A stretch of 64,000 nt of DNA from Deltaproteobacteria bacterium (GTDB lineage Bacteria > Desulfobacterota > Deferrimicrobia > Deferrimicrobiales > Deferrimicrobiaceae), in NCBI GenBank assembly GCA_020346465.1, contig CP070783.1:2189097-2253096 (forward strand), given 5' to 3'. Shown one piece after another: positions 1,670 to 40,012 of this stretch. The notes beneath the pieces were generated by a model. The model had not been told where the DNA came from. It saw only the letters and a program-made list of their open reading frames with translations, and did not search any database. Each line of letters opens with the position of its first letter. The first letter of the stretch is position 1. Made by a program: the position numbers and the translations under genes.

Positions 1670-3436
1670 TTGGCGGGTCGGGCCGCAAGTCGCTGGTTGC
1701 TCCGCGCGCCGGAGGAATCGCTCGTCCGGGACATCCGGGAACGGACCGGGATGTCGGAGGTGGCTTCCCGGATTCTGGTCAACCGGGGGATCTCCGATCC
1801 CGGTGAGGCAGACCGGTTTCTCAACGGCACCCTGAACGACCTCTCCTCCCCCTTTCCGATGAAGGATCTCGAGAAGGCTTCGCGGCGGCTCGTGGACGCT
1901 GCGCGGGGGGGGGAACCGATCCTGCTGTACGCCGATTACGATGCGGACGGCGCGACGGGGGCAGCCTGCCTGTTCCTCTTCCTGAACGAGCTGTTTCCGG
2001 GGGCAGACGTCCGGATCCATCAGAACCACCGGACCGTGGACGGGTACGGTCTGAAGAGAGACCACCTGGAGGCGGCCTCCCGCGTCGGCGTGAAGCTCCT
2101 CGTGACCGTGGATGGCGGTGTGACCGACGAGGAAGCGATCCGGTGGGCCTCCGCGGCGGGGATCGACGTGATCGTGACGGACCATCACCTTCCCGGAGAG
2201 GTTCTTCCCCCCGCGTTTGCCGTCCTGAACCCGAAGCAGAAGGGTTGCCCGTACCCCGGGAAGGATCTTGCGGGGGTGGGCGTGGTCTTCCTGCTGATGT
2301 GCGGCGTCCGCCGGCTGATGCGGGAGGAAGGCGCGTTCCCCGGGGGGGACGGACCCTCCCTGCGGAAGTACCTCGACCTCGTGGCGCTCGGCACCGTGGC
2401 GGACATGGTTCCCTTGCGGGGAGACAACCGCCTGCTCGTGAAAGCCGGTCTCGAGGAGATGCGTCTTCGCGCGCGGCCCGGCATCCGGGCCCTTTTCTCG
2501 GTTTCCGGGATTGCGCAGGAAACGGTGAACGAGACCGATCTGGCCTTCCGCGTCGGCCCTCGCCTGAACGCCGCGGGCCGGGTGGGGGACGCCACGCGCG
2601 GTTCGGAACTGCTCGTGACGGACAGTTTCGGCAGGGCCCTCCGCATTGCCGAGGAGCTCCACACGGACAATGCCTGGAGGCAGCGCGAGGAGGAACGGAT
2701 CATGCGCGAGGCGCAAGCCGCCCTGGAGTCGGGGCCTCCGCTGTCCTCCCTCTCCGCGATCGTCCTTGCCGATGCCGGCTGGCATATGGGCGTCCTCGGC
2801 ATCGTCGCGTCGAAGATCGCCCAGCGGTATCACCGCCCCGCCGTTCTCCTCCAGATCAACGGGGAGGAGGCAAGGGGGTCCCTCCGAAGCGCGGACGGGT
2901 TCCCCCTGGTCGAGGCGCTTTCCGGGCTCTCGCCTCTCCTGACCCGGTACGGGGGGCACATGCAGGCGGCCGGCATCGCTCTGCCCGCCGGCAACCTCCC
3001 CGCCTTCCGGGAAGGGCTGGACCGTGCCGCGAGGACGTACGCCTCGGGCAGGGACGGCGCACCCCGCGTCGAGGTCGATGCGCAAGTGCCCCTCTCCGGG
3101 ATCTCCGGCGGATTCATGGAGGAACTCGAGCGGATGCGCCCGTTCGGGATGGGAAACGAGGAGCCGGTCCTGCTCGCCTGCAACGTGCGCGTCGGGAGGC
3201 GATCCCTCTTCGGAGGGGAGGGCCGGCACCTGAAGGCCGAGCTGTCGGGGAACGGGTGCCGCTTCGAGGCGGTCGCCTTTCACCGGTCGGAGCTGCCGTC
3301 GGGTCCGGGCGGCTCTCTCGACATCCTCTTCACCCCCCAATGGACGTTTTTTCGCGGCGAACGCTCGCTCCGGCTCCGGCTGATCGACGCGCGGCCCTCC
3401 AGGCTCCCGGGGGAACGCGCGATGCAACGGTCCTGA
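1670..3436 (+). CDS. recJ: single-stranded-DNA-specific exonuclease RecJ
   Basis: DHH-family motifs (LLYADYDADGATG, TDHH) and RecJ-like length; TTG start is uncertain. Confidence 0.85.
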   Translation: MAGRAASRWLLRAPEESLVRDIRERTGMSEVASRILVNRGISDPGEADRFLNGTLNDLSSPFPMKDLEKASRRLVDAARGGEPILLYADYDADGATGAACLFLFLNELFPGADVRIHQNHRTVDGYGLKRDHLEAASRVGVKLLVTVDGGVTDEEAIRWASAAGIDVIVTDHHLPGEVLPPAFAVLNPKQKGCPYPGKDLAGVGVVFLLMCGVRRLMREEGAFPGGDGPSLRKYLDLVALGTVADMVPLRGDNRLLVKAGLEEMRLRARPGIRALFSVSGIAQETVNETDLAFRVGPRLNAAGRVGDATRGSELLVTDSFGRALRIAEELHTDNAWRQREEERIMREAQAALESGPPLSSLSAIVLADAGWHMGVLGIVASKIAQRYHRPAVLLQINGEEARGSLRSADGFPLVEALSGLSPLLTRYGGHMQAAGIALPAGNLPAFREGLDRAARTYASGRDGAPRVEVDAQVPLSGISGGFMEELERMRPFGMGNEEPVLLACNVRVGRRSLFGGEGRHLKAELSGNGCRFEAVAFHRSELPSGPGGSLDILFTPQWTFFRGERSLRLRLIDARPSRLPGERAMQRS

Positions 3437-3455
3437 GCTCCGTCGGGGAGGTTCC

Positions 3456-3911
3456 GTGATCCGCTGGGGGAAGATCCGGGAGAAACTCCGCGAGGCGATC
3501 GCCGCGGAATCCGACGAGAAGAGCCTCGCGGCGGGATTCGCCGTGGGAGTGTTCTTCAGCTTCACCCCGCTGGTGACCCTCCACATGGTGCTGGCGCTGA
3601 TCGTGGCCGTCGTCCTCCGGTTGAACAAGGTGACCACCATGGCGGGGGTCTGGGTGAACAATCCCTACACGATGCCCTTCGTGTTCTACGGGTGTTTCCG
3701 CCTGGGGGAATGGGTACTGGGGATACGAATCGCCCCCCCGTCGTTCGAAAACTACACGCTCCAGACGGTCCTGAAGGCGGCCGTCCCCTATGCCGCCCCC
3801 CTCTTTCTGGGCACGACGATCGTGGGGATCGCCGCCGCGGGACTGGGGTATATGGTTGTCTACCGCATCGCGGTCAAGGTAAAATCGGCGCGACGGAAAG
3901 GGATGATATGA
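3456..3911 (+). CDS. DUF2062-like small membrane protein
   Basis: 151-aa ORF with a GTG start behind a GGAGG SD; hydrophobic core typical of DUF2062; function unknown. Confidence 0.6.
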   Translation: MIRWGKIREKLREAIAAESDEKSLAAGFAVGVFFSFTPLVTLHMVLALIVAVVLRLNKVTTMAGVWVNNPYTMPFVFYGCFRLGEWVLGIRIAPPSFENYTLQTVLKAAVPYAAPLFLGTTIVGIAAAGLGYMVVYRIAVKVKSARRKGMI

Positions 3912-3924
3912 AGGAGGTACCTTC

Positions 3925-4818
3925 GTGAAGCCGTATTCGGTGAGCTTCGGCGGAATTCCCGACAAGTATTCCTCGTGGAAGAGTTCGGCATTCGTCGTCC
4001 TGCCGTTCCCGATCGACCTGACCGCAACGTACGTGTCGGGGACGCGGAACGGTCCCCGGGCGATGATCGAGGCATCCGGCCACATGGAGCTGTTCGACGA
4101 GGAGAACAAGATCGAGCCGTACCGGGCGGGGATCTTCGTCTCCACGGAGATTCCGGTGCTGACCACGGGCCCGCTCGCCATGCTGAAAGAGCTCGAGAAG
4201 CGGGTGAAGGCAGTCACCCGGGCGGGAAAGTTCCCCATCGTCGTGGGGGGGGAGCACTCGGGGACGTGCGGCGCGGTTTCCGCCCTGAAGAAGAAATACG
4301 AGGATCTCACCGTCCTGCAGTTCGATGCGCATGCGGACCTGCGAGACACCTATCTCGGAACTCCCTGGAACCACGCCTGCGTGGGTCGCCGCATCGTGGA
4401 CTCCGGAGCGAAACTCGTGCAGGTCGGGGTGCGCAGCATCTCGGAGGAGGAGGACCGGTTTCTGCGCCGGGCGGAAACCGTCAAGTCCTTCTACGCGTCG
4501 GAGGTACGGGACAATCTTGCGGATGTCACGCGGGGGATCGTGAGCTCCCTCACCGGCAACGTATACATATCGATCGACCTCGACGTCTTCGACCCGGGGA
4601 TCATGCCGGCCGTGGGAACGCCGGAGCCCGGCGGTCTGGACTGGTTCGAGGTGATCGACATCCTGCGGGACGTGATGCGGGCGGACTGCAACATCGTGGG
4701 ATTCGACATCATGGAGCTTTCCCCCCTCCCCGGCATCGTCGCCCCGGATTTCCTCGCGGCGAAGCTGTGCTACCGGATGATGGGGTGGATCCTCGCCAAG
4801 CGGGAAGAGAAGAAGTAG
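3925..4818 (+). CDS. speB: agmatinase (arginase family)
   Basis: Ureohydrolase motifs ([22 protein letters not shown]); GTG start 7 nt after an AAGGAGG SD. Confidence 0.8.
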
Positions 4819-4850
4819 GGGGAGACGCCCCGCCAAAGGAGATGTCGCCG

Positions 4851-27116: not shown

Positions 27117-27146
27117 TTGACAATGCTTGGGCGATTCTCATAGAAT
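27117..27146 (+). promoter_or_regulatory. tRNA-Gly promoter
   Basis: Perfect TTGACA, 18-nt spacer, TAGAAT, ending 12 nt before the tRNA 5' end. Confidence 0.55.
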
Positions 27147-27158
27147 CGAGGTCCTGAC

Positions 27159-27233
<75 letters not shown>

Positions 27234-27243
27234 AATAAAACAG

Positions 27244-27278
27244 GGGGTTGCGACCTTCACCGCAACCCCTTTTTCTTT
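27244..27278. terminator. bidirectional intrinsic terminator after tRNA-Gly
   Basis: GGGGTTGCG-ACCTTCAC-CGCAACCCC followed by TTTTTCTTT on the + strand and TGTTTTATTT on the - strand. Confidence 0.7.
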
Positions 27279-27417
27279 CCGGTTGGCTGGTTTATCCTGC
27301 CACTTATCCCGCCCCGTTTCCCGTCACAGGAAGGAACAACAGGGGCCTGGCCCCGACGCCATTTCCTGGATCAGGGAGAGCTTGTACCATTTTCCCCCGG
27401 TCATCCCGTGGTAGGGA

Positions 27418-27558
27418 TCAATCCACCAACGGCAGGAGCCGGATCCAAGCAATTATCCGCGATACGTTTATGATGATGACGATCGCGGAAAACCCGATAA
27501 CGGCTGTAATGAATATCGCTAATATTTCGTCCGGGATATATCGAACCCGCGAGTTCAT
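27418..27558 (-). CDS. unannotated 46-aa single-TM hydrophobic peptide (MNSRVRYIPDEILAIFITAVIGFSAIVIIINVSRIIAWIRLLPLVD)
   Basis: Below the ORF-track size cutoff; ATG 7 nt after a perfect AAGGAGG SD; AT-rich codons (ata, tta, att) unlike the host; sits in the low-GC segment next to tRNA-Gly. Confidence 0.45.
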   Translation of the reverse strand: MNSRVRYIPDEILAIFITAVIGFSAIVIIINVSRIIAWIRLLPLVD

Positions 27559-27657
27559 TCTTCTTCCTCCTTATACCTTCCCTTGTCGTCTCGTTTCCTT
27601 TTCAACTAGTCAACGAACAGTGTCCCCCCGCCGCCTCCTTTCCGGCGGGGCAGTTTA

Positions 27658-27671
27658 CCAGGTATACCTGG
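27658..27671. promoter_or_regulatory. perfect 14-bp palindrome CCAGGTATACCTGG (candidate operator)
   Basis: Lies between the divergent small ORF and the RHH gene, about 50 nt upstream of the RHH start; a GC-rich 8-bp stem hairpin (CCCCGCCG...CGGCGGGG) lies at 27626-27650. Confidence 0.3.
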
Positions 27672-27722
27672 AAAACAATTTATACCCGGGGTTGTAGAAG
27701 TCAAATCTTTTTTGAGGGTATA

Positions 27723-27911
27723 ATGGCGGCCATGGAAAAGAAGAAAGGACCACCGCGGCATTACCCGACGACGATCTGCACCCGCGTTTCGGAAAAGACG
27801 TTCAGCCGGCTGGCGAAGTTGGCCCTGGATGAGGATCGGCCGGTTTCGTGGATCGTCAGGAGAATCCTCGTCCAACACCTGGAGGCCCAGGACAAGAAGG
27901 GGCGAAAATAG
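27723..27911 (+). CDS. ribbon-helix-helix (CopG/Arc-like) DNA-binding protein
   Basis: 62 aa; ICTRVSEKTFSRLAKLALDEDRPVSWIVRRILVQHL has an RHH beta-alpha-alpha pattern; a TATAAT overlaps the first ATG, so the second ATG (27732) may be a leaderless start. Confidence 0.55.
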   Translation: MAAMEKKKGPPRHYPTTICTRVSEKTFSRLAKLALDEDRPVSWIVRRILVQHLEAQDKKGRK

Positions 27912-27930
27912 CGCCCAGGATGTTTTTTTT
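27900..27930 (+). terminator. putative intrinsic terminator of the RHH gene
   Basis: GGGCG-AAAATAG-CGCCC stem-loop spanning the stop codon, then AGGATG and a T8 run. Confidence 0.45.
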
Positions 27931-28111
27931 CTCCCCGTCCTGAAGAGATCAACGACACCCTGCTCCCCTTGGAACTCCTCCCCCCTGTGGCAAATTGGCT
28001 CAGTTGTCGGCTTACGAACCCTCGGAGGGCTCCCCCGCTTCGGGTACAGTTCGGGGACGTTCTTAAACTTTTTAAGGCATGGGACCGGATTCCCTCCGTT
28101 GGAGGGGGAGA

Positions 28112-39040: not shown

Positions 39041-40012
39041 ATGATCCTTCAATACCTCGATTTCGAGAGGCCCATCGTCGACCTGGAGAACCGGCTGGAC
39101 CAGCTGCGCCGTCTCGACGACGGAACCGACAAGAACGTCCGCGAGGAAGCGGCGAAGCTGGAGAAGAAGATCGCCAAGATCCGCAAGGAGATCTTCTCCA
39201 ACCTGACCCGGTGGCAGATCACCCAGCTCGCGCGCCACCCGAACCGGCCCTACATGCTCGACTACGTGAACCTCTGCTTCCGGAATTTCCTCGAGATCCA
39301 CGGGGACAGGACGTTTCGCGACGACCCTTCCATCGTTGCCGGCTTCGCGGAGCTCGACGCCGAAAAAGTGGTGATCATCGGCCAGCAGAAGGGGCGGAAC
39401 ACCACCGAGAAGATCAGCCGCAACTTCGGGATGGCGCACCCGGAAGGGTACCGCAAGGCGCTCCGGATCATGAAGCTCGCCGAGAAGTTCCGCATCCCCG
39501 TGATCACGATCATCGACACGCCGGGGGCCTTCCCGGGGATCGGCGCCGAGGAGCGCGGACAGTCGGAGGCGATCGCCCGGAACCTGCTCGAGATGGCGAG
39601 ACTCGAGACCCCGATCGTGGTCATCGTGATCGGCGAGGGGGGAAGCGGCGGGGCCCTGGCGATGGGGATCGGGGACGAGATCCTCATGATGACCTACGCG
39701 ATCTACTCGGTCATCTCCCCCGAGGGGTGCGCCTCCATCCTCTGGAGGGACACGGCGCAGGCGGAAACCGCCGCCGAGATGATGAAGATCACCGCGCCCG
39801 ACCTGAAGAAGTTCGGCGTCGTGGACCGGATCATCCCGGAGCCGGAGGGAGGGGCGCACAGGGACCACAAGGCCGCCGCCGACCTGGTGCGGGCGGCGCT
39901 GCTGGAGGCGCTCGCGTCGGTCCGGTCCCTGCCCATCCGGCAGCTTCTCGACCGCCGGTACGCGAAGTTCCGGGAGATCGGCCGGATCAAGCGAAAGGCG
40001 GGTGGGGGATAA
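39041..40012 (+). CDS. accA: acetyl-CoA carboxylase carboxyltransferase subunit alpha
   Basis: MILQYLDFERPI..., RNFGMAHPEGYRKALR, TPGAFPGIGAEERGQ match AccA throughout. Confidence 0.9.
   Translation: MILQYLDFERPIVDLENRLDQLRRLDDGTDKNVREEAAKLEKKIAKIRKEIFSNLTRWQITQLARHPNRPYMLDYVNLCFRNFLEIHGDRTFRDDPSIVAGFAELDAEKVVIIGQQKGRNTTEKISRNFGMAHPEGYRKALRIMKLAEKFRIPVITIIDTPGAFPGIGAEERGQSEAIARNLLEMARLETPIVVIVIGEGGSGGALAMGIGDEILMMTYAIYSVISPEGCASILWRDTAQAETAAEMMKITAPDLKKFGVVDRIIPEPEGGAHRDHKAAADLVRAALLEALASVRSLPIRQLLDRRYAKFREIGRIKRKAGGG

Follow-up and report, generated by a model that had tools for sequence, protein, structure and literature searches.

In a 64-kb stretch of DNA from a deltaproteobacterium of the family Deferrimicrobiaceae (contig CP070783.1; the entire stretch of 64,000 nucleotides is named the window below), we identified a two-gene cassette consisting of a gene for a hydrophobic 46-residue peptide (27418 to 27558, stop codon included, minus strand) and a divergent gene for a 59-residue ribbon-helix-helix (RHH) protein of the CopG/Arc-like type (27732 to 27911, plus strand). 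The peptide gene is real, its pairing with the RHH gene is conserved, the partner has an RHH fold according to its structural model, and a palindrome located between the two genes co-occurs with the RHH gene; the unit is portable and narrowly distributed. On balance, and with slightly better than even confidence, we read the sequence as a cassette in which the RHH protein represses a small membrane peptide, for which a toxin-like or stress-effector action is the leading guess. The peptide gene had been noticed in an initial annotation of the window, which regarded it as a toxin-like small membrane protein and overlooked the RHH partner.

The peptide gene reads from the ATG at 27558 to the TGA at 27418, and the product of this open reading frame (ORF) is MNSRVRYIPDEILAIFITAVIGFSAIVIIINVSRIIAWIRLLPLVD. 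A Shine-Dalgarno sequence AAGGAGG (27572-27566, minus strand) precedes the start codon with a 7-nt spacer, and its GGAGG core shows no variation in 15 of 15 aligned loci; the ORF, this arrangement and the coordinates were described in the same way in the initial annotation. Hydropathy is maximal at residues 12-30 (Kyte-Doolittle mean 3.0), and AlphaFold2, supplied with the family alignment, modelled one continuous helix comprising residues 10-45 with a mean predicted local distance difference test (pLDDT) score of 88, in agreement with the single hydrophobic helix postulated before. Codon usage is atypical, as had also been claimed: the GC content at third codon positions (GC3) is 0.63, compared to 0.95 in the adjoining gene pgsA, and it is low in both genes of the cassette. 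The proposed drop in local GC content exists, but its size has to be corrected: instead of about 45% within a background of about 67%, we determined 47.5% for the peptide ORF and 48.9% for positions 27400-27730 versus 66.1% for the whole window. Similarly, the designation of the gene as unannotated is correct only in part: 44 public contigs have a gene call for exactly this peptide, and some homologues carry a JGI label, 'LptF'. The peptide is not listed under an NCBI protein accession. As an observation aside, the first codons of the peptide gene (27543-27562, minus strand; AAGAATGAACTCGCGGGTTC...GATATATCCCGG) bear an inverted likeness to the variable loop and T-arm of a nearby tRNA-Gly gene (27194-27213), with 17 of 20 matches followed by ATCCCG. 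This likeness is probably due to chance, because it is weaker in relatives from other contexts (L001: TGGAAGGTTC).

The cassette pair recurs in about 25 related loci from metagenomes and metagenome-assembled genomes of Deferrimicrobiaceae, which represent at least four unrelated genomic contexts; one source locus is titled Candidatus Deferrimicrobiaceae. The peptides constitute 15 protein clusters with identities of 72-100%, all of them 46 residues long except for one of 47 residues, and further variants exist at 54-58% identity. In every sufficiently long locus with the exception of L002 and L027, an RHH gene is found in divergent orientation at a distance of 165-175 bp; in the window, 173 bp separate the two start codons. 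In order to avoid a bias towards intact peptide ORFs, loci were additionally collected by way of the RHH protein; each of them has an intact peptide ORF, and they include a clade whose peptide is 54-57% identical while the RHH protein is still 92% identical. In L024 and L026 the ORF is likewise intact, though no gene was called there. Conservation of the ORF in related genomes, which the initial annotation had named as a check, was thus found in all relatives that we detected. A search with a hidden Markov model among 1.84 billion representative proteins gave just two clusters, both obvious members of the peptide family. The first is the 47-residue form, whose additional codon is in frame. The second is a divergent homologue that had been called as a protein of 97 residues; its residues 52-97 (46 residues), which start at an internal methionine preceded by a GGAGG-rich site, match the family. 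This result indicates that the family is real but very narrow, and the 1.84 billion representatives offered no distant relatives of the peptide from which a function could be borrowed. Two further matches were discarded: the similarity of a Hyphomicrobium locus (L004) is a 14-residue chance match, and a tblastn match of the peptide at 39100-39204 of the window is weak, antisense to an unrelated gene and spurious.

The frame-specific coding tests were based on 15 distinct DNA variants, whose peptides are 54-100% identical. Some other figures speak against our reading. Pairwise Nei-Gojobori ratios of non-synonymous to synonymous substitution rates (dN/dS) of the peptide ORF lie between 0.4 and 5 and are mostly at least 1, compared to 0.03-0.31 for the RHH gene; the proportion of synonymous differences (pS) is 0.03-0.18 versus 0.09-0.32. 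Variable columns are distributed over codon positions 1/2/3 as 24/16/15 in the peptide ORF, which is no third-position excess, and as 9/10/23 in the RHH gene. Moreover, synonymous changes in the peptide ORF are not enriched (26 observed, 23.7 expected). Classical purifying selection is absent on the peptide ORF, and taken alone the dN/dS, pS and codon-position figures would argue against coding. Such values, as well as the high nucleotide conservation over the whole cassette including its non-coding parts, would suit a region that is conserved as DNA or RNA, for example as an RHH-regulated leader with binding sites, and in which the ORF is open by chance. Given the following frame-specific results, we regard this explanation as very improbable. 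The annotated frame contains no stop codon in any of the 15 variants, down to 54% amino acid identity, whereas each of the other five frames has stops in 1-15 sequences. If the 91 observed variant alleles are re-dealt to other columns having the same consensus base, 2.8 stop-creating changes are expected, compared to none observed (P = 0.03). Non-synonymous changes have an average BLOSUM62 score of +0.2 in the peptide frame and between -0.6 and -1.8 in the other five; in the shuffle test, the observed mean was +0.31 versus -0.23 ± 0.17 after shuffling (P about 0.001). The only two indels within the ORF are independent in-frame insertions of a single codon (L012, P0021), and there is no frameshift, unlike in intergenic and neighbouring non-coding DNA, which has several 1-nt indels. 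Frame-disrupting differences between close relatives, the second check that had been suggested, consequently do not occur among the 15 variants. Finally, the Shine-Dalgarno sequence is constant and at an optimal distance. Because of the absence of stops, the conservative changes, the in-frame indels and the constant GGAGG, we conclude that the ORF is a translated gene.

The pattern of substitution at the protein level is informative as well. Constant across the 15 protein clusters are R6-Y-I-P-D10, I12-L-A14, I17-T18, N31, R34, I36, W38-I39, L42-P43 and D46; in later, more divergent variants (L022/L024, P0022), a few of these residues are altered conservatively (I8V, I12V, D46E). Many first-position changes convert isoleucine to valine, and both the hydrophobicity and the polar motifs are kept, which would be difficult to reconcile with an ORF that is open by chance. 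Selection seems to target the hydrophobic nature of the peptide together with a few polar sites, which would be expected for a short transmembrane peptide.

The partner gene is listed as an ORF of 62 residues beginning at ATG 27723, and gene callers often use this longer start. This ATG is absent in L001, L003 and L011; the conserved start is therefore ATG 27732, which gives the 59-residue protein beginning with MEKKK. In the comparison with Pfam, the RHH_1 family scored slightly below its cut-off (E = 6e-4; 20.1 bits, cut-off 20.5), and a precomputed PF01402 match exists for the homologue P0019. Weak Arc-like PHROG matches and a match to an NCBIfam RelB-like antitoxin (E = 0.0011), which extends over the RHH part only, were also found; the NCBI name of the 62-residue form is 'ribbon-helix-helix domain-containing protein'. 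The AlphaFold2 model has helices at residues 21-34 and 38-57 and pLDDT values above 90 over residues 21-50. DSSP assigned no N-terminal strand in this monomer model; in RHH proteins, the N-terminal strand pairs with that of a second subunit. A Foldseek comparison of the model with the PDB gave best-ranked matches that are nearly all RHH domains (CopA_SO, PutA, ParD, MazE-mt9, AmrZ, CopG, Arc), with target-normalised template modelling scores of 0.75-0.85 and root-mean-square deviations of 1.1-1.8 Å. Judged by its model, the partner has an RHH fold, although the sequence score is borderline.

Several control elements are predicted in the DNA between the two genes. A promoter scan proposed a sigma-70-like promoter for the peptide gene at 27677-27704 (minus strand), with -35 TTGACT at 27704-27699, a 16-nt spacer and -10 TAAATT at 27682-27677. 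In relatives, TTGACT is constant and the -10 reads TAAATT, TAAAAT or TACATT. Transcription of the peptide gene would then start near 27670, giving a 5' untranslated region (UTR) of about 110 nt. A strand-neutral palindrome detected by a repeat finder at 27653-27676 spans this predicted start site; it consists of a perfect 14-bp core CCAGGTATACCTGG (27658-27671) within arms of 12 + 12 nt having one mismatch, and it occurs once within the window. The palindrome is exact in 25 of the 30 loci fetched. The five other loci are L002, L027, the truncated contig L023, the spurious hit L004, and L007, which has two substitutions. In L002, the deletion of the RHH gene is accompanied by a symmetrically degenerate palindrome, TCATGTATACATTG, and in L027, which possesses no RHH gene, there is no cassette homology around a divergent peptide homologue. 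It is mainly this co-occurrence with the RHH gene that makes the palindrome best read as candidate operator DNA of the RHH protein. The initial annotation had correctly noted a 14-bp palindrome and a GC-rich hairpin in this region and treated the former as a feature of the 5' UTR; for the palindrome, we prefer an interpretation at the DNA level to one at the RNA level. A third half-site at 27681-27689 (minus strand), which was found by pattern search and alignment, overlaps the -10 of the peptide promoter and reads CCGGGTATA in the window and CCAGGTATA in most relatives. Towards the RHH gene, the motif TATAAT at 27719-27724 (plus strand) is the presumed -10 of that gene and shows no variation in relatives. 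Its distance of 7-8 nt from ATG 27732 suggests that the RHH mRNA may be leaderless or nearly so. The RHH gene ends with an intrinsic terminator at 27900-27930 (plus strand), formed by the hairpin GGGCGAAAATAGCGCCC across the stop codon and a T run at 27923-27930, which is conserved in relatives.

According to the initial annotation, the peptide resembles type I toxins, and an antisense promoter should be looked for. A type I toxin controlled by an antisense or nearby small RNA would be compatible with the size of the peptide (below about 60 residues, hydrophobic, with one transmembrane helix), with the strong Shine-Dalgarno sequence, the AT-rich codons and a long conserved 5' UTR with a hairpin, and an overlapping RNA could explain why synonymous sites of the peptide ORF are somewhat less variable than those of the RHH gene. 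Considering the following results, we nevertheless think this idea very improbable. The hairpin (27624-27650, minus strand; CCCCGCC-GGAAAGGA-GGCGGCGGGG) contains a second AAGGAGG and is half deleted in L012. RNAalifold placed it in the consensus fold of the 5' UTR, but with a positive covariation term and essentially invariant pairs, so that no covariation-supported structure results; the fold of the whole peptide mRNA has z = -1.5. An inverted repeat internal to the ORF (27453-63/27482-92) is broken in relatives without compensation. On the opposite strand, the promoter scan found no promoter-like site between 27234 and 27700, although consensus scans may miss weak or unusual promoters, and Rfam gave no significant match in the cassette, only the tRNA gene and two sub-threshold chance matches. 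Type I toxin models (Hok, Ldr, Fst, Ibs, TisB, ShoB, Zor and others) produced no match at E ≤ 1 in Pfam and NCBIfam, and PADLOC and PHROGs yielded none either. The partner that constantly accompanies the peptide is a protein and not an RNA. As neither an RNA partner nor a family match was detected, the cassette cannot be shown to be a type I system.

The positions of promoter and start site, the repression, the insertion of the peptide into the membrane and any toxic effect are inferences, which can be combined into the following mechanism. The RHH protein, probably in the form of a dimer of dimers, would bind the palindrome TTTTCCAGGTATACCTGGTAAA and additionally the third half-site on the -10. 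Bound in this way, it would cover the predicted start site and keep transcription of the peptide gene low, which is the effect on the peptide promoter that the position of the palindrome predicts. Upon relief of repression, the strong Shine-Dalgarno sequence would drive synthesis of the peptide, which would insert into the cytoplasmic membrane and act there, possibly in a dose-sensitive manner. That this action is toxin-like or that of a stress effector is our leading guess; it is suggested by the tight dedicated control, the portability, the atypical codon usage, the fast but conservative evolution of the peptide, and the similarity in concept to TisB and DinQ.

Besides the substitution figures given above, several findings weigh against this mechanism. 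In L002, a deletion of about 320 bp (at 4701-4830 of this locus, corresponding to 27781-28104 of the window) has left only about 16 codons from the start of the RHH gene, and a CoA-transferase gene now abuts this remnant; the peptide gene is intact. L027 encodes a divergent peptide homologue with no RHH gene nearby. An intact peptide gene that lacks its RHH gene argues against a peptide that is lethal when de-repressed. In addition, the RHH protein consists of a basic tail and the RHH core only, and thus has no extra domain for signal sensing or toxin binding. The promoter scan found no good -35 for the RHH gene, and the palindrome might just as well control the promoter of the RHH gene itself.

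The loci L002 and L027 keep a benign role alive, in which the peptide would be an innocuous small membrane protein with an accessory or regulatory function, modulating a membrane complex or transporter; AcrZ, MgrB, KdpF and CydX are examples of small modulatory membrane proteins. We consider such a role possible, albeit rather unlikely. The peptide might, for instance, imitate the first transmembrane helix of LptF/LptG and associate with the lipopolysaccharide exporter LptB2FG. In eight of 15 family members, residues 6-39 (RYIxxEIL followed by a hydrophobic helix) weakly match positions 1-34 of the LptF_LptG profile, with a best E-value of 0.01. The helix contains three conserved polar residues, T18, N31 and S24, the last of which is almost invariant; judged by eye from helix geometry, they lie on one face, which would suit helix-helix packing, and changes elsewhere in the helix are conservative. 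However, the LptF_LptG match originates from the hydrophobic segment and remains far below the cut-off, a PDB profile search found nothing, and no membrane-complex genes are conserved in the neighbourhood, as the contexts differ. Moreover, a dedicated repressor and portability would be unusual for subunit-like small proteins. An identity as LptF/LptG permease was rejected: the score is 13.4 bits, compared to a cut-off of 27.9 for PF03739, and only positions 1-34 of the 353 profile positions are involved. LptF and LptG possess about 350-400 residues and six helices, as opposed to the 46 residues of the peptide. The faint likeness to their first helix explains the JGI names, and the public 'LptF' label on peptide homologues is a wrong over-annotation.

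Searches for related families and for a mobile origin gave little. The peptide produced only sub-threshold hydrophobic matches (LptF_LptG, FliL, XrtK) in Pfam, NCBIfam, PHROGs, PADLOC and a profile search of the PDB. A tblastn comparison of both proteins with INPHARED and PLSDB found nothing, and neither did a palindrome search and profile-derived searches in IMG/VR. The resemblance to type I toxins and phage-derived peptides that was pointed out in the initial annotation is therefore not accompanied by family similarity in any of these eight collections; its core statement, that a small gene preceded by a strong ribosome-binding site encodes a membrane peptide of one helix, agrees with the relatives and the frame tests, which show the gene to be real and conserved.

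A comparison with characterised systems helps to place the cassette. The immI region of phage P22 contains the RHH repressors Arc and Mnt, which have about 50-80 residues without an extra domain, and divergent promoters, one of which carries a palindromic operator of approximately 21-22 bp. The cassette shares with it a minimal RHH protein, here a predicted repressor, and a palindrome, here a candidate operator, on one of two back-to-back promoters. In contrast, the gene that would be controlled encodes a 46-residue membrane peptide and not an antirepressor, a phage context and matches in phage collections are lacking, and Arc is only among the weak structural matches. Type II toxin-antitoxin systems with RHH antitoxins (ParD, RelB, CopA_SO, MazE-mt9) are likewise portable two-gene units with an RHH DNA-binding protein, and the best structural matches of our model are RHH domains of antitoxins. 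Assignment to this class was rejected, since the genes of the cassette are divergent in all loci rather than co-transcribed as an operon and the RHH protein is devoid of a C-terminal toxin-binding extension; furthermore, its partner is a membrane peptide and not a cytoplasmic enzyme toxin. TisB and DinQ, type I toxins of the E. coli SOS response, share with the cassette a peptide that is small, hydrophobic and single-helical; their long 5' UTR and the block of transcription at a repressor operator in the promoter have predicted counterparts here. A DinQ study (PMC3567139) reports that translation is limited to a processed +44 transcript and yields a toxic peptide of the inner membrane. Unlike TisB and DinQ, which are controlled by the global repressor LexA, the peptide gene adjoins a dedicated RHH gene; an antisense RNA partner was not detected, and the sequences are not similar. 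By these analogies, the cassette most resembles P22 immI-style RHH switches in its layout and repressor-gated membrane peptides in its logic.

The shared unit has a length of about 620 bp (about 27415-28040). In L001/L011 (TerC/MsrB context), L008 and L022 (UbiE/PEMT context), homology to the window is confined to the cassette, extending from about 27415 to 27910-28040 with a nucleotide identity of 83-93%; the contexts of the peptide loci thus differ and include CoA-transferase/pgsA, TerC/MsrB and UbiE/PEMT. In syntenic loci, cassette and flanks have similar identity, which points to largely vertical inheritance with occasional relocation. The boundary on the RHH side is marked by a C-rich, strand-neutral non-coding tail of about 110 nt behind the RHH terminator (27931-28040); in alignments with L001 and L003, homology to the window ends at 28036-28041. 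The window, L001, L003 and L015, whose contexts are unrelated, all preserve this tail along with the cassette; L016 has a 56-nt insertion in it, and L007-L009 keep only the first 35 nt or so. The tail contains no ORF, no Rfam match and no consensus structure.

On the peptide side, the gene is convergent with tRNA-Gly(gcc) at 27159-27233 (plus strand), as originally described. The tRNA adjacency emphasised in that description is true of the window and does not hold in general, because the cassette also occurs in contexts without tRNA-Gly. A shared bidirectional terminator had been proposed as well: the element at 27242-27271 scores on both strands in the terminator scan, but it belongs to the context outside the portable unit and lies 147 nt past the stop codon of the peptide gene, and a weaker hairpin intervenes. 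The latter is followed by a U-rich stretch (27342-27354, minus strand) and may be a terminator of the peptide gene; it is conserved in loci sharing the tRNA-Gly context. Directly upstream of tRNA-Gly, a sigma-70 promoter close to consensus (TTGACA, 18-nt spacer, TAGAAT) is located at 27117-27146.

The neighbouring tRNA-Gly is a hot spot for integration. In L009 (about 3330-3930), a 40-nt direct duplication of the tRNA-Gly 3' end surrounds an insert of about 480 bp, which encodes a small secreted-looking protein with MGQQP repeats, has its own terminator, and looks like a miniature integrated element or a remnant thereof. L003 (4325-4382 and 4455-4485) contains a truncated and mutated copy of the 3' two-thirds of tRNA-Gly beside the cassette, and a fragment of another tRNA 3' end (TTCGAATCCTYCAGGGCGCGCC), absent from the window, is present in both L003 and L008 (3195-3235); these pieces may be scars of attachment (att) sites. 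Near the position that tRNA-Leu/tRNA-Cys occupy in the window, L021 carries a gene for a 447-residue phage-type integrase (1522-2865) beside a LysE gene, another sign that the tRNA cluster is a region of integration. One might consequently regard the cassette as the leftover immunity or regulatory module of an integrative element once residing at tRNA-Gly, that is, an Arc/Mnt-like switch with its target that is now without function for the host. The low GC3 of both genes, the integration events at tRNA-Gly in L009 and L003, the other tRNA fragment beside the cassette in L003 and L008, and the integrase nearby in L021 are in line with this idea. Yet the window contains no integrase, the cassette in it is not flanked by an att-type direct repeat of the 3' end of tRNA-Gly, the relocated copies in L003 and L008 have no integrase beside them, and the phage, plasmid and IMG/VR collections gave no match. 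Across many lineages, both genes persist intact and strong purifying selection acts on the RHH gene, which is unexpected of a decaying remnant; we thus think it most unlikely that the cassette is functionless debris.

A more far-reaching version of the repressed-peptide reading can be formulated, which we regard as speculative and, in sum, improbable. The cassette would be a portable toxin-control module of a kind not described before, in which a membrane-active peptide is held in check purely at the level of transcription by a dedicated, probably unstable minimal RHH repressor, with neither an RNA antitoxin nor neutralisation by a protein. The fast conservative turnover of the peptide (dN/dS at least 1) beside a nearly frozen repressor would then reflect conflict, for example phage exclusion or addiction.

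We found no description of the cassette, or of small proteins in the Deferrimicrobiaceae lineage, in the literature. The cassette is a previously uncharacterised, lineage-restricted combination of a small protein and a regulator, confined to uncultured Deferrimicrobiaceae. Its anatomy is clean, and nothing about it is mechanistically surprising yet. Small membrane proteins are systematically under-annotated, and most of them have no assigned partner or regulator; in this case, the sequence provides a complete unit of promoter, candidate operator, dedicated predicted repressor and peptide. If the peptide is toxic and controlled by the RHH protein only, the cassette would widen the known ways of silencing toxic membrane peptides; if it modulates a membrane machine, a lineage-specific regulator would be added. 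In either case, the 'LptF' label should not spread further.

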